Program-made: the position numbers and the translations under genes | Shown here: positions 21,858 to 45,716 of the stretch, piece after piece | Layout: each line of letters begins with the position of its first letter | Position numbering within the stretch: position 1 is the first letter of the stretch | The notes under the pieces: model-generated | Database searches by the model: none | The model's input: the letters and a program-made list of their open reading frames with translations, nothing else | What the model was told of the DNA's origin: nothing | Assembly: GCA_963663895.2 (NCBI GenBank) | Contig: CAXXRD010000002.1 | Location: 1 to 64,000 of the forward strand | Length of the DNA: 64,000 nucleotides | Reading direction: 5' to 3' | Origin: Dehalococcoidia bacterium | Lineage (GTDB): Bacteria; Chloroflexota; Dehalococcoidia; Bin125

Positions 21858-23951
21858 ATGGCGTCCGATACTCGCTACAAAATATCCGTCGACACCGGAG
21901 GCACCTTCACGGACCTTGTCCTCGCCAACCAGCAATCCGTCCTCGGCCTGTACAAATCTCCCACCACCGCCGCCGACATGTTCCACGGCATCAAGAGCGC
22001 CATGGACCTCGCCGCCGAGTCCAACGGTCTCAGCCTCCACGACCTGCTGGCCGCCACCGACGCCTTCGTCTATTCCACCACCGTCTCCACCAACGCCATC
22101 CTCGAAGGCAAGATCGCCAAGACCGCCTTCTTCGCAACCAAGGGCCATCCGGACAGTCTGCTCTACCGCGAGGGCGGTAAGTTCCAGTCCCACAATCTCG
22201 CCATGCCCTTCCCGGAGCCCTATGTGCCCCGCAGCCGCACCTTCGAGATCGAAGAGCGCATCCTCGCGGACGGCACCGTCTATCAGGAGATCGATGAGGA
22301 GCAGGTCAAGCGACAGATCCAGCGCCTGCATGACATGGGCATTGAGGCCGTCGGCGTCTGCCTCCTCTGGTCCCCCGTCAACCAAGACCATGAAAAGCGT
22401 GTCGGCGCCCTGCTCAATGAGTACGCCCCCAATATGGAGGTTACCCTCAGCCACCAGCTCAACCCCATCATCCGGGAATATCGCCGCGCCTCCGCCACCT
22501 GCATCGACGCCTCCATCAAGGCGCTCATGCGCGAGCACCTCACGAAAATCGACTCGCAGCTCCGCGAACTCGGCTTCCAGGGCGACCCGCTCATGGTCAC
22601 CCACATGTCCGGCGGCGTCCTCAATCTTGAGGAGATGGTCGTGCGCCCTCTCCACACTGTCGACTCCGGCCCCGCCCTCGCCCCCGTCGCCGGTCTCGCA
22701 TACGCCGAAGCCGATATCGACACCGACTACTCCGACCTTCTCGTCGTCGATGCCGGCGGCACCTCCTTCGACGTCAGCCTCACCCGTAACGGCTCCATCC
22801 TCTACACGCGCGAGAAGTGGCTCGGCGAAAAGTGGTCCGGCCACATGACCGGCCTGCCCGCCGTCGATACCCGCTCCGTGGGCGCGGGGGGCGGCTCCCT
22901 CGCCTATGTCGATGCCGGCGGCCTCCTCCAAGTCGGCCCGGAAAGCGCCGGCGCGAACCCCGGCCCCGCCTCCTACGACCTCGGCGGCGACCGCCCAACC
23001 GTCACTGACGCCGCCGTCGTCCTCGGCCATATCGACCCGGCCTACTTTCTCGGCGGCCGCATGACCCTAGACCCTGCTCTCGCGAAAACCGCCATCGATA
23101 CCCACGTCGCCGCCCCCCTCAACCTCTCCACCGAAGCCGCCGCCCAGGCCATCATCACCGTCTCCTCGGAGCGCATGCGCGGCTTCATCAGCGAGATGAC
23201 CATCTCCCAAGGGCTCGACCCCCGCGAATCGCTGATGATCGCCGGCGGCGGCTCCGCCGGCCTCACCATCGTCGGCATCGCCCGTGAGCTCGGCGTCTCC
23301 CACGTCCTCATCCCCAAGCTCGCCGCCGGCCTCAGCGCCATGGGCGGCCAGTACTCGGACCTCATGGCCACCTTCTCGCGCGGCTGGCACTCCACCTCCA
23401 AGGACTTCGACGCCGAGGGCGTCAACAACGCTCTCCGGGATATCGCCAACGACATGGACGACTTCTTCCAGCGCGTCAACATGGAGGGCGAGCAGATCCG
23501 GCAGTTCATCTGCGAGGCCCGCTACGTGCACCAAGTCTGGGAACTCGACGTCAGCCTCGGCGGCAAGGGCCGTATCGAAGGCGACGCGGACCTCAAAGCG
23601 CTCCAGGACGAGTTTGACCGCGTGCACATGGAGCTCTTCCACGTCAACCAGCCCGGCCACGAGATCGAAATGATCAACTGGCGCGGGGAGGCTCGCGTCC
23701 GCCTCCCCCGCCCCGAGCTCCTCGGCAGCAGCGGCGGCGACGGCGGAGGCGGGCAGGCCAGCCAGCGCACGGCCTACTTTGAGGGCCAAGCCCTCGACAC
23801 CGCGATCTACACCGGCGCCTCTCTCGCCCCCGGCACCACGATCGACGGCCCCGCCATCATCGAAGAGCCCACCACCACCATCGTCGTCATCCCCGGCGCC
23901 CAAGTCACCGTGCGCCCCGCGCACTATCTCGTCCGCGTCGGCTCGGACTAG
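21858..23951 (+). CDS. Hydantoinase A / 5-oxoprolinase ATP-binding subunit (HyuA/OplA-like)
   Basis: DTGGTFTD, STTVSTNAILE, SGPA, DAGGTSFD, VGAGGGS, VGPESAGA.PGP and GPAIIEEPTTT motifs. Confidence 0.93.
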   Translation: MASDTRYKISVDTGGTFTDLVLANQQSVLGLYKSPTTAADMFHGIKSAMDLAAESNGLSLHDLLAATDAFVYSTTVSTNAILEGKIAKTAFFATKGHPDSLLYREGGKFQSHNLAMPFPEPYVPRSRTFEIEERILADGTVYQEIDEEQVKRQIQRLHDMGIEAVGVCLLWSPVNQDHEKRVGALLNEYAPNMEVTLSHQLNPIIREYRRASATCIDASIKALMREHLTKIDSQLRELGFQGDPLMVTHMSGGVLNLEEMVVRPLHTVDSGPALAPVAGLAYAEADIDTDYSDLLVVDAGGTSFDVSLTRNGSILYTREKWLGEKWSGHMTGLPAVDTRSVGAGGGSLAYVDAGGLLQVGPESAGANPGPASYDLGGDRPTVTDAAVVLGHIDPAYFLGGRMTLDPALAKTAIDTHVAAPLNLSTEAAAQAIITVSSERMRGFISEMTISQGLDPRESLMIAGGGSAGLTIVGIARELGVSHVLIPKLAAGLSAMGGQYSDLMATFSRGWHSTSKDFDAEGVNNALRDIANDMDDFFQRVNMEGEQIRQFICEARYVHQVWELDVSLGGKGRIEGDADLKALQDEFDRVHMELFHVNQPGHEIEMINWRGEARVRLPRPELLGSSGGDGGGGQASQRTAYFEGQALDTAIYTGASLAPGTTIDGPAIIEEPTTTIVVIPGAQVTVRPAHYLVRVGSD

Positions 23952-24064
23952 CGAGCGAACCCCGTGCCGCCAACGTCCAGCGACGCGTCCGATTCGCCCC
24001 ATGCCGATGAGCAATGACCGCCCGCGCGCAGCAACCGTCCGGCGGCCCCGCCTCAGGAGAAGTC

Positions 24065-25867
24065 ATGTCTGACCACGACGCGCGAACGATCGACCCGGTG
24101 CAACTCCTGGTCATGGCCAACCGCATCGACGGCATCACCCGCGAGATGACCAACACCCTCGTCCGCACGGCTCGCTCCACCACCCTCGCCGTCCGCGACT
24201 TCTCCACCTCCATCTCCGACGTCAACCATCAACTCTTTGCCGCCCCCGAAGGCATACCTTGCCATGTCTACGGTTCCGGCCTCCTCTGCGAAACCATGGC
24301 CGAATACCACCCCGACTTCAAAGAGGGAGACGCCTTTCTCCACAACGACCCTTACCTCGGCAACTCCCACCCGGCCGACCACACCATCCTCGTCCCCGTC
24401 TTCTTCGAAGGCGAGCACGTCTTCACCACCTGCATCAAGGCGCATCAAGCCGACTGCGGCAACGCCCTGCCCACCACCTACATGCCCAAAGCCATTGATG
24501 TCTACGCCGAGGGCGCGCTCATCTTCCCTTGCGTCAAGATCCAAGAGGATTACCAGGATGTGGGCGATATCGTCCGCATGTGCCAGAAGCGCATCCGCGT
24601 CCCCGAGATCTGGTACGGCGACTATCTCGCCATGCTCGCCGCCGGCCGCGTCGGCGAGCAACGCATCAAGGAGTTCTGCCAGAAGTACGGCCTCGAGACC
24701 GTCAAGCGCTTTCAGAGGGAATGGCTCGACTACTCCGAGCGCATGGCCGATGCCGAGATCCGCAAGCTCCCCAAGGGCACGGTCCACGGCGAAACCGCGC
24801 TCGATCCCTTCCCCACGCTCCCCGACGGCGTCCCCATGCAGGTCGATATCGAGGTCGATCCGGACGCCGGCTTCGTCCACGTCGACCTCACCGACAACAT
24901 CGATTGCACCCCCGCCGGCATCAACCTCAGTGAATCCACTGCCATCAACTGCGGCGTCACCGGCGTCCTCAGCGTTCTGAACTCCAAGCCGGAAGCCAGG
25001 AACGTCACCGTCCCCAACAACGCCGGTGCTTTCCGCCGCATCCCCGTCCAGGTCCGCGAGAACTGCGTCGTCGGCATCCCCCGTCACCCCTCCTCCTGCT
25101 CCATGGCCACCAACACCGTCGCCGACCGTTGCCTGGGCATGGTGTACTCCAGCATGAGCCAGCTCGGCGACGGCATCGGCCTGGCCGAGCCTTGCTTCGG
25201 CTCCGGCCCCTACCAGGGGGTCGTCTCCGGCTATAACCGCAAGCGCGATGAGCCCTTCGTTCTCCAGATCTTTTCCGGCACGGCCGGCGGCCCCGCCGGC
25301 CCCCAATCCGACGGCTGGCTCACTTTCCTCATCGCCAACGCCGGCGGCATGGCCTACTTCGATGAAACCGAGGTCATCGAGCAGAAATATCCCTTCGTCG
25401 TTTGGGACTCCTACGTCCGCGTCGATTCCGAAGGCGCCGGCCGCCAGCGCGGGGCTCCCGGCAACGTCTGCGTCTACGGGCCGCTCCCGGACCAGAACGC
25501 CATCGAGGTGCACTACTCCCTGGACGGCATGATCACCCCGCCCAAGGGCGTCCGCGGCGGCGGCGACGCTCTCGGCAACGAGGTCTGGCTGCAAGGGCCG
25601 GACGGGAGCGAGCGGCATCTCCCCGACATGGTCGGCGAGCAGATCGTCGACTCCGGCGAGCGCCTCATCTCCCTCTCCACCGGAGCAGGCGGCTACGGCG
25701 ACCCCAAGACTCGCGACCCGCAAGCCGTCCTCACCGACGTCGCCGAGGGCTACGTCACCCCCGAGCGCGCCCGCACGATCTACGGCGTGGCCCTGGCGGG
25801 GGACGCGAGCAAGGTTGAAACCCTGCGGATCGATGAGGCGGCCACCGTTGCCCTGCGCCCCCGCTAA
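24065..25867 (+). CDS. Hydantoinase B / oxoprolinase catalytic subunit, paralog B1
   Basis: NDPYLGNSHPADH, KAHQAD, EG..FP, DSEGAGRQRG and GGYGDP motifs. AGGAGA SD before ATG 24065. Confidence 0.93.
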   Translation: MSDHDARTIDPVQLLVMANRIDGITREMTNTLVRTARSTTLAVRDFSTSISDVNHQLFAAPEGIPCHVYGSGLLCETMAEYHPDFKEGDAFLHNDPYLGNSHPADHTILVPVFFEGEHVFTTCIKAHQADCGNALPTTYMPKAIDVYAEGALIFPCVKIQEDYQDVGDIVRMCQKRIRVPEIWYGDYLAMLAAGRVGEQRIKEFCQKYGLETVKRFQREWLDYSERMADAEIRKLPKGTVHGETALDPFPTLPDGVPMQVDIEVDPDAGFVHVDLTDNIDCTPAGINLSESTAINCGVTGVLSVLNSKPEARNVTVPNNAGAFRRIPVQVRENCVVGIPRHPSSCSMATNTVADRCLGMVYSSMSQLGDGIGLAEPCFGSGPYQGVVSGYNRKRDEPFVLQIFSGTAGGPAGPQSDGWLTFLIANAGGMAYFDETEVIEQKYPFVVWDSYVRVDSEGAGRQRGAPGNVCVYGPLPDQNAIEVHYSLDGMITPPKGVRGGGDALGNEVWLQGPDGSERHLPDMVGEQIVDSGERLISLSTGAGGYGDPKTRDPQAVLTDVAEGYVTPERARTIYGVALAGDASKVETLRIDEAATVALRPR

Positions 25868-25976
25868 GCCGGCCCCGCGCGCCGGCCTGCCGAGGCGGCG
25901 CCGGTTCCGCCGCGCCGAATAGCGCCGCCGCCAGGGCCAGCCCGGCCGCGCCCGCCGCTAGGACACTGGTAGATTC

Positions 25977-28665: not shown

Positions 28666-28918
28666 GGCATGGTGCCCCCGCGGTCTTATCCAGCTTAACG
28701 CCGCCGCCGAGGGTGGGGTTCCGCCCGTCCCACCCGACCGGATGCCGGGGGCCGCACGGCGGGTTGGAGGGCTCGCAGAGGCCGCGGGCGATGGCGAGAA
28801 CGGCGCCGCCGTTGGGCTCCCGCTTCCCTATCGCGAACCCGGCCAGCGGAACGTTCGCGGTACGGTAGGATTGGCCCACTCAGCGGCGCGCGGTGCGCCA
28901 TCACGATCGAGGAAGGCC

Positions 28919-29317
28919 ATGCCCGTCCCCAAGCAGATCATCATCCCCGACCAGCTCCGCCTGCCCGCCGAGCGCTTCAACTACTCCCCCGGCATCAAGG
29001 TCGGCAACACCCTGTACATGGCCGGCCAGGTCGGCCGCGATGCCGAGATGCACGTCGTCGAAGAGACCGAAGCGCAGTTCGTCCAAGCCCTGGAGAACGT
29101 CGGCTCCATCCTCAAGGAGGCCGGGGGAGACTTCTCCGACGTCGTCGAGCTGGAAACCTGGTTCGTCGATATTGAGCGCGACTTCCCCATCTTCCTCCCC
29201 ATCAAGGACCGCTACTTCACCGGCCCCCACTACCCCACCTGGACCGCCTTCGAAGTCGGGGATCTCGTCATGGGCCTCAAGATCGAGATCAAGTGCATCG
29301 CCGTCCTGGATGGCTAG
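28919..29317 (+). CDS. Rid (YjgF/RidA) family protein, non-Arg subtype
   Basis: YSPGIKVGNTLYMAGQVG, LKEAGGDFSDVV and PTWT..V..L....IEI. Trp occupies the RidA catalytic Arg position. Confidence 0.88.
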   Translation: MPVPKQIIIPDQLRLPAERFNYSPGIKVGNTLYMAGQVGRDAEMHVVEETEAQFVQALENVGSILKEAGGDFSDVVELETWFVDIERDFPIFLPIKDRYFTGPHYPTWTAFEVGDLVMGLKIEIKCIAVLDG

Positions 29318-29327
29318 AAGATCCCCC

Positions 29328-29862: not shown

Positions 29863-31641
29863 ATGGACCCCATCCAACTGCTCGTCATGGCCAACCGCAT
29901 CGACGGCATCACCCGCGAGATGACCAACACCCTCGTACGCACCGCCCGCTCCACCACCCTCGTCGCCCGCGACTTCTCCACCTCTATCTCCACCGCAGAC
30001 CACGAGCTCTTCGCCGCGCCGGAGGGCGCTCCCGTCCACGTCTACGGCTCCGGCCTCCTCTGCCAAACCATGGCCGACCTGCACCCCGACTTCCAAGAGG
30101 GCGACGCCTTCCTCCACAACGACCCCTACCTCGGCAACACCCACCCCGCCGACCACACCATCATCGTCCCCGTCTTCTACGAAGGCGCACACGTCTTCAC
30201 GACCTGCGTCAAGGCGCACCAGGCCGATATCGGCAACGCCCTCCCCACCACCTACATGCCCAACGCCGTCGATGTTTACGCCGAAGGCGCCCTCATCTTC
30301 CCCTGCGTCAAGATCCAGGAGCACTACCGGGACGTGGGCGACATCGTCCGCATGTGCCGCAAGCGCATCCGCGCACCCGAGATCTGGTACGGCGATTACC
30401 TCAGCATGCTCGCCGGCGCCCGCGTCGGCGAGCAGCGCCTCAAAGAGCTCTGCGCGAAGTACGGCCCCGAAACCGTCCAGACCTTCGTCCAGGAATGGAT
30501 GGACTACGCCGAGCGCATGGCCATCGCGGAGATCAGGCGTCTTCCCGCCGGCCGCATCCAAGCCGAAACCACCATGGACGCCTTCCCCCGCCTGCCGGAC
30601 GGCCTCCACATCGAAGCCGCCATCGACGTTGACCCCGCCGCCGGCCAGGTCACCGTCGACCTGCGCGACAACCCGGACTGCACTCCCACCGGCCTCAATC
30701 TCAGCGAAGCGACCGCCATGAACTGCGGCATCACCGGCGTTCTCACCGTCCTCAACTCCAAGCGCAGCGCCAAGGCCCCCATCGTTCCCCAGTGCGCAGG
30801 CTCCTTCCGCCCCATCAAGGTCCTCCTGCGCGAGAACTGCGTCGTCGGCATTCCCCAGCATCCCGTCTCCTGCTCCATGGCCACCAACACCGTCTGCGAC
30901 CGCGCTCTCGCCATGGTCTACTCCGGCTTCTCCCAGCTCGCCGACGGCATCGGCCTCGCCGAACCTTGCTGGGGATCGCCTCCCTTCCAGGCCGTCGTCT
31001 CCGGCTATAACCACAAGCGTGGTGAGCCCTATGTCGCTCAACTCTTCTCCGGCACCGCCGGCGGCGCCGCCTCCGCCGAGTCCGACGGCTGGCTCACCTA
31101 CCTGCTTCCCAACGGCGGCGGCCTCAACTACGTCGACGAATGCGAAGTCGTCGAGCAGAAATATCCCTTCGTCCACTGGGACTGCCGCGTCCGTCTCGAC
31201 TCCGAAGGCGCCGGCCGCACCCGCGGCGCCCCCGGCAACGTCAGCACCTTCGGTCCCCTCCGCAACCCCATGGACGTCCACTACTCGCTGGAGGGCCGCA
31301 CCAACGTCCCCCGCGGCGTTCGCGGCGGCGGCCCCTCCCTCGGCCCCGCCGCCGCCATCTACCGCGCCGGCGGCGCCTTCGAGCCCCTCCCCAATATGGT
31401 GGGCGAGCAGACCGTCCAGCCCAACGAGCGCATCGTCTCCTACTCCGCCGGCGGCGGCGGCTACGGCGATCCGCACCAGCGCCCGGCCCAGGCCGTCCTC
31501 AACGACGTCGTCGAGGGCTACGTCTCCGTCCGTCGCGCCCGCGAGATCTACGGCGTCGCCCTCACAGGCGACCCCACCAAAGTGGAAACCCTCCAGATCG
31601 ACGGCAGGGCGACCACCGATCTGCGTGCGAGATCGCCATGA
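29863..31641 (+). CDS. Hydantoinase B / oxoprolinase subunit, paralog B2
   Basis: Same motif set as B1 (NDPYLGNTHPADH, KAHQAD, DSEGAG, GGGYGDP). ATG at 29863. Confidence 0.93.
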   Translation: MDPIQLLVMANRIDGITREMTNTLVRTARSTTLVARDFSTSISTADHELFAAPEGAPVHVYGSGLLCQTMADLHPDFQEGDAFLHNDPYLGNTHPADHTIIVPVFYEGAHVFTTCVKAHQADIGNALPTTYMPNAVDVYAEGALIFPCVKIQEHYRDVGDIVRMCRKRIRAPEIWYGDYLSMLAGARVGEQRLKELCAKYGPETVQTFVQEWMDYAERMAIAEIRRLPAGRIQAETTMDAFPRLPDGLHIEAAIDVDPAAGQVTVDLRDNPDCTPTGLNLSEATAMNCGITGVLTVLNSKRSAKAPIVPQCAGSFRPIKVLLRENCVVGIPQHPVSCSMATNTVCDRALAMVYSGFSQLADGIGLAEPCWGSPPFQAVVSGYNHKRGEPYVAQLFSGTAGGAASAESDGWLTYLLPNGGGLNYVDECEVVEQKYPFVHWDCRVRLDSEGAGRTRGAPGNVSTFGPLRNPMDVHYSLEGRTNVPRGVRGGGPSLGPAAAIYRAGGAFEPLPNMVGEQTVQPNERIVSYSAGGGGYGDPHQRPAQAVLNDVVEGYVSVRRAREIYGVALTGDPTKVETLQIDGRATTDLRARSP

Positions 31642-31743
31642 GGCCCACGAACCCAACCACCGTGTACTCCGACCCGTCCGCCCGCGCGGGCCGCGACGCA
31701 TCCCCGATCACGGAGCGTCCTCGGTGAGCACGACCAGCTAGCG

Positions 31744-33510
31744 ATGGACCCCGTCCAGCTCCTCGTCATGGCCAATCGCGTCGACGGGATCACCCGCGAC
31801 ATGACCAACACCATCATCTGGACCACTCGCTCCGCCACCCTCGCCGCCCGCGACCTCTCGACCTCCATCTGTACCGCCCAGCATGAGCTTTTCGTCGCCC
31901 CCGAGGGGCTCCCCGTCCACGTCTACGGCTCCGGGCTGCTCTGCGAAGCGATGGCCGACCTCCACCCGGACTTCCAAGAGGGCGACGCTTTCCTCCACAA
32001 CGATCCCTATCTCGGTAACACGCACGCCGCCGACCACACCGTCCTGGTGCCCGTCTTCTTCGAAGGCAAGCACGTTTTCACGACCTGCGTCAAAGCGCAT
32101 CAGGCCGACATCGGCGACGCCATCCCTACCACGTACATGCCCAAAGCCCGCGACGTCTACGAAGAGGGCGCCCTGATCTTTCCCTGCGTGAAAGTGCAAG
32201 AGAGCTACCAAGACGTGGGCGACATCATCCGCATGTGCCAGAAGCGCATCCGCGTCCCCGAGGTCTGGTACGGCGACTACCTCGCCATGATCGCCGCCGC
32301 CCGCGTCGGTGAGCAGGGGCTCAAGGATCTCTGCGCCAAGTTCGGCCTCGACACGGTCAAGACATTCGTCCGTGAATGGCTCGACTACCAGGAGCGCGTC
32401 ATCGACGCCGCCATCCGCAAGCTGCCACCCGGCCGGCTCCACGCCCACACGACCTTCGACCCCTTCCCCTATCTTCCCGACGGCGTCCCTCTCCAAGCCG
32501 GCATCGACATCGACCCCGCCGCCGGCCGCGTCACCGTCGACATGCGCGACAATCCGGACACCACCCCCACCGGCCTCAATCTCAGCCGCGCCACCGCCAC
32601 CAACGCCGGCATCTCCGCCGTCCTCGCCGTCCTCAACTCGCTCCCCACCGTCGACACCGAGGTCAAGAACAACGCCGGCAGCTTCCGCCGCATCCAGGTC
32701 CTCCTGCGCGAGAACTGCGTCGTCGGCATCCCTCGCCACCCCACCTCCTGCTCCATGGCCACCACCGGCATCGCCGACCGGGTACAAGCGATGATTCACG
32801 CCGCCTTCGGCCGCCACGCCGACGGGATCGGTCTGGCCGAGTCCGGCCGTGGTCAAGGGCCCTACATGGCCGTCGTCTCCGGCTACGACCGGCGCCGCGA
32901 CGAGCCCTACATGCTCTCCCTCTTCAGCGGAACCGCCGGCGGTCCCGGCACCCCCAACACCGATGGCTGGCTCACCTTCCTCATGGCCGCCGGCGCCGGC
33001 CTGCTCTACATCGATCAGTCCGAAGTGATTGAGCAGAAATATCCGATGGTGGTGATCGAGATGCGTGTCCGCCTCGACTCGGAAGGCGCCGGCCGCCAGC
33101 GCGGCGCTCCCGGATCTATCACCGTCTTCGGCCCCATCGACCATACGATGGAGGTCCACTACTCCCTCGACGGCATGATCAATGTCCCTCTCGGGGTGCA
33201 GGGCGGAGGCCCTGCCCTCGGCCCCGCCGCTCAGCTCATCGACGCCGACGGCGCCACCCGCGACTTACCCGACATCGTCGGCGAGCAGCCCCTGCAAGCC
33301 GGTGAGCACATCGTCTCCCTCTCCGCCGGCGGGGGCGGCTACGGTCACCCCCACCAGCGCCCGGCTCAAGCCGTCCTCAGCGACGTCGTCGAGGGCTACA
33401 TCTCTCCCCGCCGCGCCCGCGAGACTTACGGCGTCGCCCTCGCAGGCGATCCCGCCAAGGTCGAGACCTTGCGGGTGGACGAGACGGCCACCGCGACGCT
33501 GCGCGCCTAA
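31744..33510 (+). CDS. Hydantoinase B / oxoprolinase subunit, paralog B3
   Basis: NDPYLGNTHAADH, KAHQAD, DSEGAG and GGGYGHP motifs. Confidence 0.93.
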   Translation: MDPVQLLVMANRVDGITRDMTNTIIWTTRSATLAARDLSTSICTAQHELFVAPEGLPVHVYGSGLLCEAMADLHPDFQEGDAFLHNDPYLGNTHAADHTVLVPVFFEGKHVFTTCVKAHQADIGDAIPTTYMPKARDVYEEGALIFPCVKVQESYQDVGDIIRMCQKRIRVPEVWYGDYLAMIAAARVGEQGLKDLCAKFGLDTVKTFVREWLDYQERVIDAAIRKLPPGRLHAHTTFDPFPYLPDGVPLQAGIDIDPAAGRVTVDMRDNPDTTPTGLNLSRATATNAGISAVLAVLNSLPTVDTEVKNNAGSFRRIQVLLRENCVVGIPRHPTSCSMATTGIADRVQAMIHAAFGRHADGIGLAESGRGQGPYMAVVSGYDRRRDEPYMLSLFSGTAGGPGTPNTDGWLTFLMAAGAGLLYIDQSEVIEQKYPMVVIEMRVRLDSEGAGRQRGAPGSITVFGPIDHTMEVHYSLDGMINVPLGVQGGGPALGPAAQLIDADGATRDLPDIVGEQPLQAGEHIVSLSAGGGGYGHPHQRPAQAVLSDVVEGYISPRRARETYGVALAGDPAKVETLRVDETATATLRA

Positions 33511-33633: not shown

Positions 33634-33717
33634 GCGCTACCCTGCCCCCAAGGCCGCGTGAACCCACCGCAAGGATCGGACGAAGGACTTAGCCGCATGC
33701 CACCCGAGACTCCCGCC
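33634..33717 (+). repeat. Duplicated promoter/leader shared by B4 and B5
   Basis: GCGCTACCCTGCC (TACCCT -10 at 33638 and 35554) and CGAAGGA.T.AGCCGCATGCCACCCGAGACTCCC occur upstream of both genes. Confidence 0.7.
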
Positions 33718-35611: not shown

Positions 35612-37432
35612 ATGCCACCCGAGACTCCCACCATGGACCCGGTCCAGCTGCTCGTCATGGCCAACCGCGTCGACGGCATCGTCCGCGAGATGACCGAAAC
35701 CCTGGTCCGCACCGGCCGCTCCGCCCAGCTCGCCGCCCGCGACCTCTCCTGCTCCCTCTCCACCGCCCAGCACGAACTCTTCGCCGCCCCCGACGGCTGT
35801 CCCGTCCACGTCTACGGCTCCGGCCTGCTCTGCGAGGCGATGGCCGATCTCCACCCCGACTTTGAGGAGGGCGACGCCTTCCTGCACAACGACCCCTACC
35901 TGGGCAACACCCACGCCGCCGACCACACCGTGATGGTCCCCGTCTTCTTCAAGGGCGAGCACATCTTCACCACCTGCGCCAAGGCCCACCTCTCCGACAC
36001 GGGCAACGCCATCGCCACCACTTACTCGCCCGAATCCATCGACGTCTACGCCGAGGGCGCCCTCATCTTCCCCTGCGTCAAGATCCAGGAGCACTACACC
36101 GACCGAAACGACATCATCCGCATGTGCCGCAAGCGCATCCGCGTCCCCGAGATCTGGTACGGCGACTATCTCGCCATGCTGGCCGCCGCCCGCGTCGGCG
36201 AGCGCCGCATCCAGCAGTTCTGTGAGAAGTTCGGCCTCGACACCGTCAAGACCTTCGTGCGGGAATGGCTCGACTACTCCGAGCGCATGACCATCGCCGC
36301 CATCCGCGACCTCCCCGCCGGCCGGGCCGAAGCCACCAGCACCGTCGATCCCTTCCCCGGCGTCCCCGACGGCATCCCGCTCCAGACCGAAGTCATCGTC
36401 GATCCCGCAGCCGCCCGCGTCACGGTCGATTTCCGCGACAATCCCGATTGCACGCCCACCGGCCTCAACCAAAGCCGAGCCACGGCGACCACCGCCGGCA
36501 TCTCCGGCATCCTGCACATCCTCAACGGCCACCCCGAAGCCAAGTCCGAGATCGCTCCCAACAACGGCGGCAGCTTCCGCCGCTTCGACATCCTCCTGCG
36601 GGAAAACTGTGTCCTCGGCATCCCCGTGCACCCCACCTCTTGCTCAATGGCCACCACCACCGTCTTCGAACGGGCCGTCAGCATGATCTTTTCCGCCTTC
36701 GCCAAGCTGGCCGACGGCGTCGGCTTCGGTGAGCCCTGCTGGGGCCTCGCCCCCCTCGACGGCGTGGTCTCCGGCTTCGACCGGCGGCGCGGCGAGCCCT
36801 ACATCTTCCAGATCTTCAGCGGCACCGCCGGCGGGCCCGCCGGCCCGCGCAACGACGGCTGGCTCACCCTCCTCGGCCCCGGCGCCGCCGGCTGCCTCTA
36901 CCTCGACTCCGCCGAAGTCATCGAGCAGAAATACCCCATGGCCGTCTACGAGCGGCGCGTGCGCCTCGACTCCGAGGGCGCCGGCCGCACCCGCGGCGCT
37001 CCCGGCAACATCTGCGCCTACGGCCCTCTCCTCGACCCGCAGGTCGTCTACTACTCCCTCGACGGCATGTTCAACCCGCCCCGCGGCGTCCGCGCCGGCG
37101 GTCCGCCCCTCGGTCCCAGCGCCCAGCTTCGCACGGCCGGGGGCGACGTCCGCGTCCTTCCCAACCTCGTGGGCGAGCAATGGCTCCAGCGCGGCGAGCA
37201 GATCGTCTCCATCTCCGCCGGGGGCGGCGGCTACGGCCACCCCCATCAACGCTCGGCCCAAGCCGTCCTCCACGACGCGGTCGAGGGCTACATCTCTCCC
37301 GGACGCGCCCGCGCGCTCTACGGCGTCGTCCTCGCGGGCAACCCGGACAAGGCCGAAACCCTCCGCATCGACGAAGCCGCCACCCAGGCCCTGCGCTCCG
37401 GCTCGACCACAGCCGCTCGCCCGGCCGGATAG
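35612..37432 (+). CDS. Hydantoinase B / oxoprolinase subunit, paralog B5
   Basis: Same motif set with a KAHLSD variant. GAAGGA SD before ATG 35612. Confidence 0.93.
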   Translation: MPPETPTMDPVQLLVMANRVDGIVREMTETLVRTGRSAQLAARDLSCSLSTAQHELFAAPDGCPVHVYGSGLLCEAMADLHPDFEEGDAFLHNDPYLGNTHAADHTVMVPVFFKGEHIFTTCAKAHLSDTGNAIATTYSPESIDVYAEGALIFPCVKIQEHYTDRNDIIRMCRKRIRVPEIWYGDYLAMLAAARVGERRIQQFCEKFGLDTVKTFVREWLDYSERMTIAAIRDLPAGRAEATSTVDPFPGVPDGIPLQTEVIVDPAAARVTVDFRDNPDCTPTGLNQSRATATTAGISGILHILNGHPEAKSEIAPNNGGSFRRFDILLRENCVLGIPVHPTSCSMATTTVFERAVSMIFSAFAKLADGVGFGEPCWGLAPLDGVVSGFDRRRGEPYIFQIFSGTAGGPAGPRNDGWLTLLGPGAAGCLYLDSAEVIEQKYPMAVYERRVRLDSEGAGRTRGAPGNICAYGPLLDPQVVYYSLDGMFNPPRGVRAGGPPLGPSAQLRTAGGDVRVLPNLVGEQWLQRGEQIVSISAGGGGYGHPHQRSAQAVLHDAVEGYISPGRARALYGVVLAGNPDKAETLRIDEAATQALRSGSTTAARPAG

Positions 37433-37552
37433 CGCGCTCCGCGCCGGCGATCAGCGGCAGAGCGCGATCTGAAGTAGACTCCCGCCGACCAGCCAGCCGA
37501 CGCGAGCCGCGCCCCCGCGCGGCGGCGCACCGTCCCGAACGCGAGTAGCTCA

Positions 37553-37966
37553 ATGACCCTCCACGCCCGCTCCGCCATCAATCCCGACGGCCTCCTCAAG
37601 TTTCCCGGCCCGGTCTCCCAAGGGATGCGCGCCAAGGCCGACGAGTACATCTTCGTCGCCGGCCAGGTCGCCCTCGGTCCCGACGGCGCCGTCGTCGCCC
37701 CGCACGACATGGACGGCCAGGCCCGCAAGGTGCTCGAGAACATCGACATCCTCCTCAAGGAGGCCGGCGCCGACTGGGACAACATCGTCGACTTCACCAC
37801 CTACATCGTCGGCTCCCAGCACATGACCACCTTCATGCAGGTCCGCAACGAGCTCTTCCCCACCTACTTCAAGAGCGGCGTCTACCCGCCCAACACGCTC
37901 ATCTTCGTCAGCGGCCTCTTCAAGCCCGATCTCGTGCTCGAGATCCACGTCACCATCGGCGTCTGA
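37553..37966 (+). CDS. Rid (YjgF/RidA) family protein, non-Arg subtype
   Basis: IFVAGQVAL, QARKVLENI..LLKEAGA and YPPNTLIFVSGL...LVLEI. Asn occupies the catalytic Arg position. Confidence 0.87.
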   Translation: MTLHARSAINPDGLLKFPGPVSQGMRAKADEYIFVAGQVALGPDGAVVAPHDMDGQARKVLENIDILLKEAGADWDNIVDFTTYIVGSQHMTTFMQVRNELFPTYFKSGVYPPNTLIFVSGLFKPDLVLEIHVTIGV

Positions 37967-38051
37967 GGAGCTATCCGAGAAGCCGCCCGGCACGTCCACG
38001 AGCCACACAGCCAACCCAGCAAAGCGCGGCGCAGCCACCCGAGGCAGAACC

Positions 38052-39845
38052 ATGTCCACCCGCGACGAGCGAACGATCGACCCGGTGCAACTCCTGGTCA
38101 TGGCCAACCGCATCGACGGAATCACCCGCGAGATGACCAACACCCTAGTGCGCACGGCCCGATCCGCCACCCTCGTCGCCCGCGACTTCTCCTGCTCGAT
38201 CGCCGACGCCGACCACCAGCTCTTCTCCGCGCCCGAGGGCATCCCCGTCCACGTCTTCGGCACCGGCCTCCTCTGCGAGGCGATGGCCGACCTGCACCCC
38301 GACTTCCAGGAGGGCGACGCCTTCCTCCACAACGATCCCTACCTGGGCAACTCCCACCCGGCCGACCACACGGTCATGGTCCCCGTCTTCGTCGAGGGGC
38401 AGCACGTCTTCACCTGCTGCGTCAAGGCGCACCAGGCCGACATCGGCAACAGCATCCCCACCACCTACACGCCCAAGGCGATCGACGTCTACCAGGAGGG
38501 CGCCCTGATCTTCCCCTGCGTCAAGGTGCAGGAGCGCTACCAGGACGTGGGCGACGTCATCCGCATGTGCCAGAAGCGCATCCGCGTGCCCCAGGTCTGG
38601 TACGGCGACTATCTGGGCATGCTGGCCGCCGCCCGCGTGGGCGAGGAGCGCGTCAAGGACTTCTGCCAGAAGTTCGGGCTGGAAACCGTGCAGCGCTTCA
38701 TCCAGGAGTGGAAGGACTACTGCGAGCGGCTGGCCGACTCCGCCATCCGCCAGCTCCCGGCCGGGCGCGTCCACGCCCAGACGGCCCTCGACCCCTTCCC
38801 CAACGTTCCCGACGGCATCCCCCTCCAGGCCGAGATCGCGATCGAGCCCGACCAGGGCCAGATCACGATCGACATGCGCGACAACCCGGACTGCACCCCC
38901 ACCGGGCTCAACCTCTCCCAGTCGACCGCCACCAACGCCGCCATCTCCGGCGTGCTGATGGTGCTCAACTCGGACCGCGAGGCCAAGGCGCCGGTGGTCT
39001 TCAACAACGCCGGCAGCTTCCGCCGCTTCAACGTCCTCCTGCGCGAGAACTGCGTGATCGGCATCCCCCGCCACCCTCACTCCTGCTCCATGGCCACCAA
39101 CACCGTGGCCGACCGGGCCATGTCGATGATCTACTCGGCCTTCGCCCAGCTCGGCGACGGCTACGGCCTGGCCGAGCCCTGCTTCGGCTCCGGCCCCTTC
39201 CAGGGCGTCGTCTCCGGCTACAACCACAGGCGCCGGGAGCCCTACGTGCTGCAGCTCTTCTCCGGCACGGCCGGCGGTCCCGGCGGCCCCCAGTCCGACG
39301 GCTGGCTCACCCTCTTCATCCCCGCCGGCAACGGCCTCCTCTACATGGACGAGGCCGAGGTGATCGAGCAGAAGTACCCCTTCATGATCTGGGACAACCG
39401 CGTGCGCCCCGACTCGGAGGGCGCCGGCCGCCACCGCGGCGCCCCCGGTAACGTCTGCATCTACGGCACCCTGGACGAGGACATGGAGGTTCACTACTCC
39501 CTGGACGGCTCCATCAACCCGCCCAAGGGCGTCCTGGGCGGCGGCCCCGCCCTGGGCCCGGCCGCCCTGCTGCAGAACCCCGACGGCAGCCAGACCGACC
39601 TGCCCGAGATCGTGGGCGAGCAGGTGGTCCCGCCGCGCCACGCCATCGTCAGCCTCTCGGCCGGCGGCGGCGGCTACGGCCCCGCGCACGAGCGCGACCC
39701 CGGAGCCGTGCTCACGGACGTGGTCGAGGGCTACGTCTCCTATGAACGGGCGCGCGATGCCTACGGAGTGGCGCTGGCGGGCGAGCCGGACAAGGTGGAG
39801 ACGCTACGGGTGGATCGGGCAGAGACCGCCGCGCTGCGCGCTTAA
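38052..39845 (+). CDS. Hydantoinase B / oxoprolinase subunit, paralog B6
   Basis: Same motif set. Its N-terminus RTIDPVQLL is identical to that of B1. Confidence 0.93.
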   Translation: MSTRDERTIDPVQLLVMANRIDGITREMTNTLVRTARSATLVARDFSCSIADADHQLFSAPEGIPVHVFGTGLLCEAMADLHPDFQEGDAFLHNDPYLGNSHPADHTVMVPVFVEGQHVFTCCVKAHQADIGNSIPTTYTPKAIDVYQEGALIFPCVKVQERYQDVGDVIRMCQKRIRVPQVWYGDYLGMLAAARVGEERVKDFCQKFGLETVQRFIQEWKDYCERLADSAIRQLPAGRVHAQTALDPFPNVPDGIPLQAEIAIEPDQGQITIDMRDNPDCTPTGLNLSQSTATNAAISGVLMVLNSDREAKAPVVFNNAGSFRRFNVLLRENCVIGIPRHPHSCSMATNTVADRAMSMIYSAFAQLGDGYGLAEPCFGSGPFQGVVSGYNHRRREPYVLQLFSGTAGGPGGPQSDGWLTLFIPAGNGLLYMDEAEVIEQKYPFMIWDNRVRPDSEGAGRHRGAPGNVCIYGTLDEDMEVHYSLDGSINPPKGVLGGGPALGPAALLQNPDGSQTDLPEIVGEQVVPPRHAIVSLSAGGGGYGPAHERDPGAVLTDVVEGYVSYERARDAYGVALAGEPDKVETLRVDRAETAALRA

Positions 39846-39862
39846 CCTGGCAAGGGGACCGC

Positions 39863-41614: not shown

Positions 41615-41622
41615 CGCGTATG

Positions 41623-41643
41623 AAGATAGACGTCTAGACGTCG
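41623..41643 (-). promoter_or_regulatory. Palindromic operator overlapping the putative leaderless MTase promoter
   Basis: Perfect palindrome GACGTCTAGACGTC (41629-41642) abuts TATCTT (-10, minus strand 41628-41623), 8 nt from the ATG. Confidence 0.6.
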
Positions 41644-41850
41644 GCCTTCAAACGCGGCGCGCACTGCGGCCGAGTGTGTTTATACTCAGTATGCCGATAG
41701 CCCAAAAATCCAGTGTCGTTGTCCTCTCCGATCAAGGATCATCCCGTCATCCAATGAACTGTTAAAGAGCCGTCATCTACCTGTCGCTTCATTTATCTAC
41801 CAATCTCTGTCCGCCTGCCTCCCCTTCCGACCCGCTATCATCCCCCGACC

Positions 41851-43632
41851 ATGCCGCTCGACCCCGTGCAGCTCCTGGTCATGGCCAACCGTCTCGACGG
41901 GATCACCCGCGAGATGACCAACACCCTGGTGCGCACGGCCCGTTCCACCACCCTGGTCGCCCGCGACTTCTCCACCTCCGTCACCGACCACGAGCACCAG
42001 CTCCTGGCCGCCCCCGAGGGCATCCCCGTCCACGTTTACGGCTCGGGGCTGGTCTGCGAGTCGATGGCCGATCTGCACCCCGACTTCCAGGAGGGCGACG
42101 CCTTCCTCCACAACGACCCCTACCTGGGCAACTCCCATCCCGCCGATCACACCATCCTCGTGCCCGTCTTCGTGGAGGGCGCGCACATCTTCACCTGCTG
42201 CGTCAAGGCGCACCAATCCGACATCGGCAACAGCATCCCCACCACCTACACGCCCAAGGCGATCGACGTCTACCAGGAGGGCGCGCTGATCTTCCCTTGC
42301 GTCAAGGTGCAGGAGGACTACACGGACGTGGGCGACATCATCCGCATGTGCCTCAAGCGCATCCGCGTGCCCGAGATCTGGTACGGCGACTACCTGGCCA
42401 TGATCGCGGCCGCCCGCGTGGGCGAAGAGCGGCTCAAGGACCTCTGCCGCAAGTTCGGCCTCGAAACCGTGCGGGACTTCATCCAGGAGTGGAAGGACTA
42501 CTGCGAGCGGCTGGCCGAGGACGCGATCAAGGAGCTGCCCTCGGGCCGCATCCACGCCACCACGGCCCTCGATCCCTTTCCCGGCGTCCCCGACGGCATC
42601 CCCCTCCAGGCAGATATCGACGTGGACACGGAGCAGGGGCGCGTCACCATCGACCTGCGCGACAACCCGGACTGCACCCCCACCGGCCTCAACCTCTCCG
42701 AGTCCTGCTCGATCAACGCCGGCATCTCCGGCGTCCTCACCGTGCTCAACTCCAAACGCGACGCCACCCACTCGCTCGTCCCCAACAACGCCGGCAGCTT
42801 CCGCCGCATCGAGGTCCTGCTGCGCGAGAACTGCGTGGTCGGCATCCCCCGCCATCCCGCCAGCTGCTCCATGGCCACCAACACCGTGGCCGACCGCGCC
42901 CTGGGGATGATCTACTCCGCCTTCGGCCGCCTGGCCGACGGCATCGGCCTGGCCGAGCCCTGCTGGGGCTCCCCCGTCTTCGAGGCGGTCGTCTCCGGCT
43001 GGAACCGCGCCCGCCGGGAGCCCTTCGTGCTGCAGCTCTTCTCCGGCACGGCCGGGGGCCCCGCCACGGCCGAGTCCGACGGTTGGCTGACCTTCTCGAT
43101 CCCCGCCGGCGGCGGCCTCTCCTACATCGACGAGACCGAGGTGATCGAGCAGAAATACCCCTTCGTCGTCTGGGAGACGCGCGTCCGCCCCGACTCGGAA
43201 GGGGCGGGCCGCACCCGCGGCGCCCCCGGCAACATCGCCGTCTACGGCCCCCTGGCCGGCGCCGACCCGATCGAGGCCCACTACTCGCTGGACGGATCGT
43301 TCAACGTGCCCAAGGGGGTCCAGGGCGGCGGCCCCGCCCTCGGTCCCGCCGCCTACCTGATCGATCGCGACGGCGCCACCGTCCACCTGCCCGAGATCGT
43401 GGGCGAGCAGCGCATCGAGCCGGGGCAGAACATCCTCTCCCACTCGGCCGGCGGCGGCGGCTACGGCCACCCCCACCAGCGCCCGGCCCAAGCCGTCCTC
43501 ACGGACGTCGTCGAGGGCTACGTCTCCGTCGCGCGCGCCCGCGAGGCCTATGGGGTGGCGCTGACGGGCGACCCCGACCGGGTCGAAACCTTGCGGGTGG
43601 ACGAGGCCGCCACGGCGGCGCTGCGGGCCTAG
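41851..43632 (+). CDS. Hydantoinase B / oxoprolinase subunit, paralog B7
   Basis: Same motif set with KAHQSD. TATCAT -10 lies 9 nt before the ATG and there is no SD. Confidence 0.93.
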   Translation: MPLDPVQLLVMANRLDGITREMTNTLVRTARSTTLVARDFSTSVTDHEHQLLAAPEGIPVHVYGSGLVCESMADLHPDFQEGDAFLHNDPYLGNSHPADHTILVPVFVEGAHIFTCCVKAHQSDIGNSIPTTYTPKAIDVYQEGALIFPCVKVQEDYTDVGDIIRMCLKRIRVPEIWYGDYLAMIAAARVGEERLKDLCRKFGLETVRDFIQEWKDYCERLAEDAIKELPSGRIHATTALDPFPGVPDGIPLQADIDVDTEQGRVTIDLRDNPDCTPTGLNLSESCSINAGISGVLTVLNSKRDATHSLVPNNAGSFRRIEVLLRENCVVGIPRHPASCSMATNTVADRALGMIYSAFGRLADGIGLAEPCWGSPVFEAVVSGWNRARREPFVLQLFSGTAGGPATAESDGWLTFSIPAGGGLSYIDETEVIEQKYPFVVWETRVRPDSEGAGRTRGAPGNIAVYGPLAGADPIEAHYSLDGSFNVPKGVQGGGPALGPAAYLIDRDGATVHLPEIVGEQRIEPGQNILSHSAGGGGYGHPHQRPAQAVLTDVVEGYVSVARAREAYGVALTGDPDRVETLRVDEAATAALRA

Positions 43633-43772
43633 GGCCTACGAGCGCGAAGGGCGCCCGGCCCGTTCGGCGGACGATCCCGCCCCGATCTCCCGCCCGATCT
43701 TTCGCGCCGATCCGCGTTCGGGCGCGCTAGTATCGGATCGTCAGTCGCACGCACGAACCGCGGGAGTCCGCC

Positions 43773-45716
43773 ATGACCACCACCCACCCCGCCCCGGCCC
43801 CCATCGCTACCGCCATCCCCCACCCGCTGGACCCGCTCACTCCGGACGAGATCCGGGCCGCCGCCCAGATCATCCGCGAGGCGCGGCCCCTCGGCGACTC
43901 CGGCCGCTTCGTCACGATCGAGCTGCACGAGCCCTCCAAGGAGGCGCTCACCGCGCCCTCGCCGAACGGCGCCATCCCCCGCGAGGCCTTCGTCATCCTC
44001 CTCGACCGCGACTCCAACACCACCCACGAGGCCGTCGTCGACCTCAGCGCCCAGACCCTCCGCTCCTGGAGCGAGCGCCCCGGCATCCAGCCCTACTTCC
44101 TCTTCGAGGAGTTCGGCGACGCCGTGTCGATCACCCGCAACCATCCCGAATGGCGCGCCGCCGCCGAGCGCCGAGGCGCCGACCCGGACAAGGTCCACCT
44201 CGAGTCCCAGCCCGCCGGGCTCTACGACCACCCGGACGAGGAGGGCAAGCGCATCCTGCGCGTGATCGCCTACCGCCAGCCCAACAAGGACGACGCGCCC
44301 TGGGCGCAGCCGATCGAGGGGCTCATCTGTCTCGTCGACGTGCACAAGCGCGAGGTCGTGCGCCTCGTCGATGAGGAGATCGCCCCCATCCCCAGCGGCT
44401 CCGGCAACTACGACCTCGACGCCGCCGGCCCCGTCCGCGCCGACCTCAAGCCCCTCGACATCGTCCAGCCCGAGGGCGTGAGCTTCAGCCTGAACGGCTA
44501 CGAGCTTGCCTGGCAGCGCTGGCGCATGCGTGTCGGCTTCACCCCCCGCGAGGGCCTCGTCCTCTACCAGATCGCCTATCAAGACCCCGCTCAAGGGACG
44601 GAGGCAAACCCGCGCTCCGTCTGCTACCGCGCCTCCCTAGGCGAGCTGGTGGTCCCCTACGGCAGCACCGGCCCCGGCCAGTACTGGCGCAACTTCTTCG
44701 ACTCCGGGGAGGCCGGCATCGGCCGCTTCGCCAACTCCCTGGAGCTGGGCTGCGACTGCCTGGGCTCTATCACCTACCTCGACGCCGTCTGGACCAACGA
44801 CCGGGGCGAGCCCGTTACCGTCAGCAACGCCATCTGCATCCACGAGGAGGACTTCGGCGTCCTCTGGAAGCACAACGACATCTTCCAGGACGGCAACGGC
44901 TCCGCCGTGCGCCGCTCCCGCCGCCTCGTCCTCTCCTACTTCGCCACCGTCGGCAACTACGACTACGGCTTCTACTGGTACTTCTACCAGGACGGATCGA
45001 TCGAGGTGGAGATCAAGCTCACCGGCGTCGTCCTCACCCAGGGCGTCCCCGACGGCGTCCAGCCCCAGACCGCGACGCTCATCGACCAGAATCTCTCCGC
45101 TCCCAACCATCAACACCTCTTCTGCTTCCGCCTCGACCTGGACATCGACGGCCCCGCCAACACCGTCCACGAGATCCACAGCGAGCCCCTGCCCGCCGGT
45201 CCCGAGAACCCGCACGGCAACGCCTTCCGTAGCGTCGCCACTCCGCTCACCTCCGAGCAGGGCGCCATCCGCGACGCCGACCCCGCCTGCGCCCGCTACT
45301 GGAAGGTCATCAACCCCGCCCGCGCCAACGCCGCCGGCTTGCCCACCGGCTACGCGCTCATTCCCGGCGAGACCGTCGCCATGATGGCCGCGCCCGACTC
45401 CAGCCCCGGCCGCCGCGCCGGTTTCGCCCGTCACCAGCTCTGGGTCACTCCCAACGCCGAGGACGAACGCTATCCCGCCGGCGACTATCCCAACCTCCAC
45501 CCCGGCGGCGACGGCCTGCCCCGCTGGACCCAGGCCGACCGCCCCCTCGAAAACCAGGACGTGGTCCTCTGGTACACGGTCGGCGTCAACCACATCGTCC
45601 GTCCCGAGGAGTGGCCCGTCTCCCCAGTCCACCGCGCCGGCTTCGCCCTCAAGCCCTGGGCCTTCTTCGACCGCAATCCCGCCCTCGACGTCGCTCCGCC
45701 CAGCCACTGCCACTAG
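43773..45716 (+). CDS. tynA: Copper-containing (TPQ) primary amine oxidase
   Basis: HPLDPLT, FFDSGE catalytic Asp, LGCDC, TVGNYDY TPQ motif, HQH copper ligands and NHIVRPEEWPV. Confidence 0.93.
   Translation: MTTTHPAPAPIATAIPHPLDPLTPDEIRAAAQIIREARPLGDSGRFVTIELHEPSKEALTAPSPNGAIPREAFVILLDRDSNTTHEAVVDLSAQTLRSWSERPGIQPYFLFEEFGDAVSITRNHPEWRAAAERRGADPDKVHLESQPAGLYDHPDEEGKRILRVIAYRQPNKDDAPWAQPIEGLICLVDVHKREVVRLVDEEIAPIPSGSGNYDLDAAGPVRADLKPLDIVQPEGVSFSLNGYELAWQRWRMRVGFTPREGLVLYQIAYQDPAQGTEANPRSVCYRASLGELVVPYGSTGPGQYWRNFFDSGEAGIGRFANSLELGCDCLGSITYLDAVWTNDRGEPVTVSNAICIHEEDFGVLWKHNDIFQDGNGSAVRRSRRLVLSYFATVGNYDYGFYWYFYQDGSIEVEIKLTGVVLTQGVPDGVQPQTATLIDQNLSAPNHQHLFCFRLDLDIDGPANTVHEIHSEPLPAGPENPHGNAFRSVATPLTSEQGAIRDADPACARYWKVINPARANAAGLPTGYALIPGETVAMMAAPDSSPGRRAGFARHQLWVTPNAEDERYPAGDYPNLHPGGDGLPRWTQADRPLENQDVVLWYTVGVNHIVRPEEWPVSPVHRAGFALKPWAFFDRNPALDVAPPSHCH

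Follow-up and report, generated by a model that had tools for sequence, protein, structure and literature searches.

How many catalytic subunits can a single ATP-binding subunit serve? This question is raised by a locus in the window, by which we mean the first 64 kb of contig C2 (positions 1 to 64,000 of CAXXRD010000002.1) of a Dehalococcoidia bacterium, whose genome comprises 2.37 Mb in 5 contigs, has a G+C content of 67%, and is 91% complete. At positions 21768-43632 on the plus strand, Pfam searches located a single gene for a subunit of the HyuA type (A) and seven full-length genes for subunits of the HyuB type (B1 to B7). By sequence, the enzyme would be of the hydantoinase/oxoprolinase/caprolactamase kind, and our analysis indicates a lineage-specific expansion of the B subunit of this predicted two-subunit, ATP-dependent amidohydrolase, with the A subunit apparently not duplicated. 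That one A subunit works with the B paralogs of its clade, every B acting on a substrate of its own, is in our estimate about an even chance (probability roughly 0.5).

One A gene and seven intact B genes

The genes of the array are listed here with the range matched on the profile PF02538 and with the ratio of nonsynonymous to synonymous substitution rates (dN/dS) relative to a sister metagenome-assembled genome (MAG).

21768..23951, plus strand: A_X, HyuA-type ATP-binding subunit, 727 aa, with Hydant_A_N, Hydantoinase_A and Hydant_A_C domains; dN/dS 0.077
24014..25867, plus strand: HyuB B1, PF02538 1-519/519, 62 bp 3′ of the A gene; dN/dS 0.079
29863..31641, plus strand: HyuB B2, PF02538 1-519/519; dN/dS 0.097
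31744..33510, plus strand: HyuB B3, PF02538 1-519/519; dN/dS 0.117
33697..35493, plus strand: HyuB B4, PF02538 1-519/519; dN/dS 0.104
35612..37432, plus strand: HyuB B5, PF02538 1-519/519; dN/dS 0.137
38052..39845, plus strand: HyuB B6, PF02538 1-518/519; dN/dS 0.081
41851..43632, plus strand: HyuB B7, PF02538 1-519/519; dN/dS 0.064

All seven B proteins (588-617 aa) matched the 519 positions of PF02538 from position 1 to 518 or 519 (E values of 1e-109 to 5e-116) and scored 368-389 bits against a gathering cut-off of 26.8 bits. None of the seven genes contains a frameshift or an internal stop codon. These results bear out an earlier note on this DNA, made from the letters and their open reading frames (ORFs), which had described one HyuA gene followed on the same strand by seven HyuB genes free of frameshifts. 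The starts given there for B2 to B7 agree with ours, whereas those given for A (21858) and B1 (24065) are in frame but are alternatives to 21768 and 24014. The note had treated the stretch 21858-45716 as an A/B array, and one A gene and seven B genes are indeed present; the series is, however, interrupted by two Rid genes, a minus-strand ORF, and an insert with a methylase gene, and the last gene of the stretch (43773-45716) encodes a copper amine oxidase that lies outside the A/B set.

The pairwise protein identity among B1 to B7 is 63-76%, with B5 being the most diverged (63-70% identity to the other B proteins of the array). This level of divergence argues that B1 to B7 are diverged paralogs rather than strain variants of one gene.

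The imbalance between A and B genes is genome-wide

The genome contains 30 PF02538 matches, corresponding to 24 full-length B genes and three broken or partial ones, compared to six PF01968 matches, i.e., A genes. Neither the Hydant_A_N profile nor the A protein, used as queries, retrieved further A genes from the genome. The scheme of the earlier note, in which one A subunit pairs interchangeably with a set of B subunits, presupposes that no matching A paralogs exist elsewhere, and A_X was in fact just 34-36% identical to the other A proteins; the related genomes G001 and G002 also have six A matches each.

Eight of the full-length B genes form a clade, X, which consists of B1 to B7 and a gene at C1:623427-625250 and has one matching A gene in the genome. 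A second clade, Y, comprises 14 B genes with 60-79% identity to each other, and its one A gene (C2:540377-542521) adjoins two clade members (C2:540377-546383). The A gene of each expanded clade thus adjoins members of that clade. The two clades are 27-29% identical to each other, and the two remaining B genes are singletons that each adjoin their own A gene. One clade-Y gene lies in the window:

53031-54845, plus strand: eighth HyuB, clade Y, 27-29% identical to B1-B7

The 1:7 array is therefore the local view of a larger pattern, with 8:1 and 14:1 by clade and, as described below, 17:1 in another genus. The neighbors of the clade-Y B genes encode amidases, luciferase-like monooxygenases, short-chain dehydrogenases/reductases (SDRs), family III CoA-transferases, FAD oxidases, and ATPases of ATP-binding cassette (ABC) transporters. 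Luciferase-like monooxygenases, SDRs, and family III CoA-transferases are typical of SAR202 expansions. Two irregular loci were also noted: at C2:292607-298854, two A-like genes are followed by a B gene that was matched in three frames and is possibly frameshifted or very divergent, and at C1:428209-429784 a clade-Y B gene in two pieces lies beside an intact one.

The B excess is confined to two related genera and predates their split

The nearest named relatives of the genome are Chloroflexota and Dehalococcoidia MAGs. In 41 relatives searched for B and A matches, with no more than 27 matches scored per genome, a B excess was found in four, namely, G000, G001, and G002, which belong to one genus, and G011 from a second genus. 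The first three have at least 27 B and six A matches each. In G011, 27 of 40 B candidates were scored, and there were four A matches, including one at 26 bits; 17 of the B proteins belong to clade X (65-75% identity to B1), with a single A_X. Many of these clade-X genes lie scattered, on five or more contigs other than that of A_X. In the rest of the family (20 genomes), B matches number 1-3 and A matches 0-3 per genome, and 16 members of the class outside this family contain 0-11 B and 0-15 A matches. In a sample of 201 genomes of the class, the genome of the window had the most first-look B candidates (32); at most six matches per genome were scored in this survey. The genomes ranking next are listed here with their counts.

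G095: 23 B candidates, 19 A matches
G055: 18 B candidates, 11 A matches
G074: 11 B candidates, 7 A matches
G101: 10 B candidates, 5 A matches
G214: 10 B candidates, 11 A matches, some of them fragments

In genus g9, a single in-frame TAG was present in an otherwise full-length canonical HyuB match in four of four genomes (G010, G016, G020, and G023).

The closest homologs outside the lineage, with 45-62% identity, come from Paenarthrobacter, Ca. Poriferisodalis, Thermoleophilia, Alphaproteobacteria, Gammaproteobacteria, and others. An A gene adjoins the B homolog in 23 of 29 such loci (an intact one in 22 loci, one split into three pieces in L031), and 21 of these 23 are one-to-one, the others being L024 with two near-identical B genes and L026 with a second, more distant A-B pair. 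The other six loci are short, are cut by a contig end, or have no A gene within the flank (L028 and L033). In one locus of an Alphaproteobacteria MAG (L017:7886-11785), A and B lie in one open frame of ~1300 aa, resembling the fused eukaryotic oxoprolinase.

A tree of 66 B proteins was calculated with a quick IQ-TREE run under LG+G4, for which SH-aLRT support was the only support measure. All 23 Chloroflexota clade-X rows formed one clade with a support of 97, as the earlier note had predicted for the B subunits, and the sister group consists of A-B pairs. B2, B3, and B5 each grouped with a B protein of the other genus, the partner of B3 being the B protein of L006. The A-B pairs outside the lineage and the cross-genus groupings suggest that, starting from an ancestral A-B pair, many B genes with one A gene had arisen before the two genera split and that the paralogs have been kept since.

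Predicted ATP site, metal site, and substrate pocket

The motifs N111-D112-P113-Y114, H119..D122-H123, and K142-A143-H144..D147 (B1 numbering) are invariant in all seven B proteins of the array, in agreement with the statement of the earlier note that the NDPY, H..DH, and KAH..D motifs are kept. The closest solved relative of B1 is the caprolactamase subunit CapB (6yra_B; E value of 7e-52), whose metal ligands are Asp41, His99, Asp102, and His124 according to section 2.7 of PMC8453981. The B1 ligands were mapped by hand to CapB via the 6yra_B alignment and this ligand list. The corresponding residues D62/H119/D122/H144 are present in 7/7 array B proteins, in 23/23 clade-X sequences, and in 24/24 full-length B proteins of the genome. 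The tunnel from A to B is lined by CapB residue Arg21 in the account of PMC8453981, and the equivalent position is an arginine in 22 of the 23 clade-X sequences.

A_X carries the motifs DTGGTFTD (at position 42), DAGGT (328), and GANPGP (395) and matched all three domains of HyuA. The motifs correspond to the ASKHA ATP motifs DxGGTxTD, DxGGT, and GxxPGP given for A subunits in section 2.1 of PMC8453981. They are kept in five of the five full-length A genes examined, a set that does not include the sixth A match (C2:293172-294005).

Sections 2.7 and 2.8 of PMC8453981 provided a list of pocket residues of CapB, of which 14 positions could be mapped to the B proteins of the array. Ten of the 14 positions vary among the seven paralogs and are mostly the same between orthologs. 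At position 370, for example, B1 has A, the B2 group has C, and the B5 group has F or L. The loop 438-449 is a hot spot of the pocket variation.

Pairing of the single A subunit with the B paralogs

According to PMC8453981, ATP is bound by the A subunit, which presumably phosphorylates the substrate. A tunnel of 40 Å then leads the substrate to the metal site of B, at which ring opening takes place, and the CapAB enzyme is an A-B-B-A tetramer. For the array, a corresponding mechanism would have the single A subunit phosphorylate the substrates using ATP. It would dock onto any of the B paralogs, one B at a time, via conserved helices of the N-domain as in the (αβ)2 enzyme CapAB. A single ATPase would in this way power several ring-opening activities, directed at different cyclic amides or lactams.

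A wider version of this proposal is put forward tentatively. In such a hub-and-spoke arrangement, one A subunit would be shared in trans by the 8 to 17 B subunits of its clade and a second A subunit would serve 14 B subunits, and the substrate range would be widened by duplicating the catalytic half alone. Mixed A-B-B′-A tetramers might form, because conservation in the region of the B-B core interface is similar to that in the remainder of the N-domain.

The support for the pairing of B1 with A is gene order. For a more remote paralog, a complex of A with residues 1-250 of B5 was modeled using alignments prepared for this analysis. The median ipSAE was 0.81, compared to 0.00 for the best of three controls, a mark attained by 58 of 80 solved complexes and 2 of 110 mismatched pairs. 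The runs agreed in at least 90% of the contacts, the pLDDT of the partner was at least 87, and the modeled contacts are located on the same two N-domain helices as in CapAB. Modeling of A with the B subunits, as suggested in the earlier note, thus gave a positive result for the most diverged B protein, but the score may reflect likeness to solved CapAB and Apc structures. The interchangeable pairing proposed in that note is supported in part, with one matching A gene present and B genes that are intact and under selection; the pairing itself is an inference and keeps the estimate of about 0.5.

Several points weigh against sharing of the A subunit. The A-B5 model may owe its score to memory of the solved homologous complexes 6YRA, 5L9W, and 5M45, and B5 shares 63% identity with B1; the model therefore reports likeness rather than binding. 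In the predicted interface, 21 of 38 positions are invariant compared to 111 of 204 in the rest of the N-domain, and these positions are also conserved family-wide. The interface would accordingly be neither relaxed nor specially constrained, and its conservation appears neither to support nor to exclude a shared partner. Binding to A, for the B subunits other than B1, and ATP dependence, for all of them, are predictions. The variability of the pocket does not differ significantly from background (4/14 versus 259/588 positions invariant; Fisher p = 0.29). Ratios of 17:1 or 14:1 would strain a 1:1 complex if many of the B subunits are coexpressed, and they would be easier to understand if B acted without A. 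At a completeness of 91%, the genome may also have another A gene that the assembly lacks. Finally, G044 and G045, unrelated genomes that are rich in these genes, have B:A ratios near 1:1 (23:18 and 37:33); together with the class-sample counts for G095 and G055 (23:19 and 18:11), this suggests that the usual route of diversification is to duplicate both subunits. The earlier note knew of no described system with a 1:7 architecture, and so extreme a ratio is indeed unusual, but several B genes per A gene are not unique to this lineage, as G044 holds short A-B-B and A-B-B-B runs.

The alternative that deserves most attention, although we consider it unlikely, is that the extra B subunits are independent of A and function alone, as B-B dimers, or with another partner, e.g., a Rid-like protein; they would then be ATP-independent metal hydrolases acting on substrates that can be hydrolyzed without ATP. 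Such independence would fit the finding that, by the gene calls of this analysis, 19 of the 24 full-length B genes are neither beside an A gene nor one B gene away from it, the scattered clade-X genes of G011, and the location of clade-Y B genes next to the amidase, monooxygenase, SDR, CoA-transferase, and transporter genes named above rather than next to A genes. A Rid-like gene also accompanies B runs in both genera. On the other hand, the characterized or proposed members of the superfamily covered in the consulted sections of PMC8453981 all have both parts, either as two subunits or fused. Moreover, the modeled interface helices show no relaxation in B2 to B7, the tunnel arginine is almost always retained, and one A gene of the matching clade has been kept under purifying selection in all four expanded genomes.

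It is quite improbable that the B paralogs pair promiscuously with any A subunit of the genome, so that the A subunit of the window would be no dedicated hub. In its favor are the largely family-wide conservation of the modeled interface positions and the intact ATP motifs in the full-length A genes examined, but the low identities of A_X to the other A proteins and of clade X to clade Y speak against it, as do lineage-specific residues at the modeled contacts in clade-X B proteins and A_X, although this last observation is descriptive.

All B genes of the array are under selection and the array is real

A third alternative is that B1 is the sole working partner of A and that B2 to B7 are redundant or decaying. 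B1 alone lies directly 3′ of the A gene. The dN/dS values relative to the sister MAG, however, were 0.064-0.137 for B1 to B7, those of B2 to B7 thus lying around the 0.079 of B1. Every gene of the array has an intact ortholog in the sister MAG, and the B genes show neither stop codons nor frameshifts. B2 to B7 are therefore kept by selection as strong as that on B1 and are not decaying. Since, in addition, several paralog lineages are conserved across two genera and all metal ligands are kept, a function of B1 alone is very improbable.

The sister MAG (L001/L003, Chloroflexota bacterium), which was deposited separately, is collinear with the array in the order A, B1, Rid1, B2-B5, Rid2, B6, B7, amine oxidase. 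The DNA identity over the collinear blocks is 94-98% (about 95%), and differences are confined to two non-Hyu inserts. In public sequencing runs, for which the evidence consists of Logan contigs whose depth cannot rank genes, contigs of independent runs bridge B2/B3, B3/B4, B4/B5, and B5/Rid2/B6. The share of the array's sampled words was 0.50-0.91 in 9 of the 24 runs listed, from eight studies; the best-holding runs may be the source sample of the array. The contigs of four runs leave 39836-41827 uncovered, which is no evidence of absence.

Mis-assembly of strain variants of one gene, a known risk for tandem similar genes in MAGs and one that might be suspected from the contig ends inside B1 and just 5′ of B2 in G002, the third genome of the genus, can be dismissed given paralogs that differ by 24-37% in protein sequence, the collinear sister MAG, and the bridging contigs. 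The array is real and not an assembly artefact, and the objection to this effect anticipated in the earlier note falls away.

Two candidate lines of evidence were rejected. “Skip” joints with 21-letter sides in run contigs are most likely cross-matches between paralogs. The separation of A and B2-B7 on different contigs in G002 was not accepted as evidence for pairing in trans, because the contigs end inside B1 and upstream of B2, which indicates an assembly break.

Contigs of one run from an RNA library (X20) matched B3, B4, B5, and B6 at about 90-97% likeness. As carry-over of DNA into the library is possible, they are a weak hint of expression and do not show transcription. A scan for promoters and terminators at 21000-40900 gave no promoter-like sites and seven terminator-like sites compared to 7.5 expected and is uninformative with respect to operons.

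Rid proteins, amine oxidase, and other genes of the window

The following genes and ORFs lie between or beside those of the A and B subunits.

26549-about 28048, open to 28879, minus strand: ORF without Pfam or NCBIfam match, between B1 and B2
28922..29317, plus strand: Rid1, Rid family (YjgF/L-PSP), PF01042, 5′ of B2; dN/dS 0.068
37478..37966, plus strand: Rid2, Rid family, PF01042, between B5 and B6; dN/dS 0.090
39846-41826: low-GC (about 60%) insert of ~2 kb, between B6 and B7
39863-40468: ORF without family match, inside the low-GC insert
40418-41614, minus strand: N6_N4 DNA methylase, inside the low-GC insert
43773..45716, plus strand: copper primary-amine oxidase with Cu_amine_oxid, N2 and N3 domains, 140 bp 3′ of B7; dN/dS 0.171

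In alignments with proteins of the PDB, Rid1 reads P-T-W and Rid2 reads P-P-N where solved homologs read P-A-R. The arginine of this triplet is presumably the canonical active-site residue of RidA, Arg105 in E. coli RidA numbering. The score of Rid2 against TIGR00004 was 56 bits and thus below the cut-off of 106 bits. Lacking the canonical arginine, Rid1 and Rid2 are probably members of the Rid family other than canonical RidA 2-iminoacid deaminases, i.e., not ordinary imine deaminases.

The amine oxidase scored 865.9 bits against NCBIfam NF008559 (cut-off of 651 bits), contains the N2, N3, and catalytic domains, and belongs to this family. An amine oxidase gene is also located 3′ of the B runs in L003 and L004. 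In L004, which represents the other genus, a Rid2 homolog with 52% identity precedes a B-B-B run. The co-occurrence of the Rid2 homolog and the amine oxidase with a B run in another genus suggests a functional link. We conjecture that lactam ring opening produces an amino acid whose free amine could be oxidized by the primary-amine oxidase. Judged from the gene neighborhood, the Rid-like proteins and the amine oxidase, which are conserved together with B runs, might act on the amino-acid or amine products and release ammonia, which is likewise conjecture.

The minus-strand ORF at 26549-28048 has a coding-like G+C content at third codon positions (GC3), a duplicated module of ~65 aa (..TTYEGLRDGT..LVEW[RK]QAADC[WF]VRYQV), and a leucine-rich-repeat-like stretch. 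The B1-B2 spacer is ~1.4 kb longer here than in the sister genome, which at the site of the B6-B7 insert has merely ~1.1 kb of unrelated sequence. Over 18000-46000 the coding strand is C-rich, with a GC skew of about -0.15 to -0.28 over plus-strand genes that flips to +0.10 across the minus-strand ORF at 26-28 kb. With a feature at 11731-13215 (minus strand), genes for an ammonium transporter, a metallo-β-lactamase (MBL)-fold hydrolase, and a major facilitator superfamily (MFS) transporter lie 6-10 kb 5′ of the A gene, and a type I restriction-modification HsdM methylase is encoded at the window end (61795-63921, plus strand).

Significance and relation to previous reports

An expansion of B genes alone was not found described in the literature searched, although the supplementary gene tables of papers on sponge symbionts and SAR202 could hold HyuA and HyuB counts. 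Three SAR202 papers contained no occurrence of “hydantoinase” or “oxoprolinase.” In the parts of the report by Slaby et al. 2017 (PMC5649159) used here, COG0145 and COG0146 (hyuA and hyuB) are enriched in sponge symbionts, A and B being taken together, and the discussion of N-methylhydantoinase genes in sponge microbiomes by Botté et al. 2019, in the part at hand, does not separate A and B.

The expansion of B alone is real, selected, and lineage-specific, and a mechanism with a shared A subunit is plausible. Having 8 and 14 selected B subunits per A subunit (17 in the second genus) constitutes a natural test of the modularity of ATPase and catalytic parts. If the two halves are modular, it could be possible to join a single ATPase to many different catalytic subunits, which bears on the biocatalytic hydrolysis of lactams and nylon monomers. 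It also bears on how Chloroflexota with small genomes (2.4 Mb) widen their catabolic range. If instead the extra B subunits work alone, a very large protein family would have an unrecognized ATP-independent activity. Were the hub-and-spoke arrangement true, it would represent a new route of diversification for a multisubunit enzyme family, and uncultured Chloroflexota of sponge and coral metagenomes would mine diverse cyclic amides for nitrogen.

Comparison with known systems

HyuAB and the fused 5-oxoprolinase OPLAH share the Pfam domains PF01968 and PF02538 with the array and catalyze the ATP-driven opening of cyclic amides; the fused N-methylhydantoinase of PDB entry 7HK5 (7hk5_A) matches B1 with an E value of 5e-45. 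Unlike in the array, A and B are strictly paired or fused in HyuAB and OPLAH. A canonical A-B pair is present elsewhere in the genome (C1:104103-108203), and its B protein scored 657 bits compared to 368-389 bits for the array, which argues that the array does not encode the housekeeping oxoprolinase.

The acetone and acetophenone carboxylases have homologous subunits. Models of the acetophenone carboxylase (Apc) gave 84-320 bits for the array, far from their cut-offs of 1250-1500 bits. According to PMC8453981, the carboxylase B subunits have 684 and 776 aa and extended ends, among them C-terminal arms that bind a gamma subunit, whereas the B proteins of the array have 588-617 aa. Judged by these scores and by the length of B, the array probably does not encode an acetone or acetophenone carboxylase. 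In Apc, one B-like subunit works with two different A-like subunits (PMC8453981, section 2.1), an imbalance opposite to that of the array.

The closest known system is CapAB of Pseudomonas jessenii (PDB 6YRA), which is the best solved relative of B1 and provides the best NCBIfam models for both A and B. The likeness includes the ASKHA ATP site in A, the Asp-His-Asp-His metal site in B, and the same contact helices. The scores were nevertheless far below the cut-off of 1000 bits of the CapA and CapB equivalogs NF050156 and NF050157 (531.5 bits for A_X, whose best NCBIfam match is CapA, 229.4 bits for B1, and 241.9 bits for B7), and the vicinal cysteines Cys410-Cys411 of CapB are not kept in the B proteins of the array, which have N/A/G and A/G there. 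By these scores, the array proteins are relatives rather than orthologs of CapA and CapB. For these reasons, caprolactam is an unlikely substrate of the array. CapAB is encoded 1:1, in the order B then A, and forms an (αβ)2 enzyme, whereas the array has seven B genes, and its clade eight genome-wide, for one A gene.

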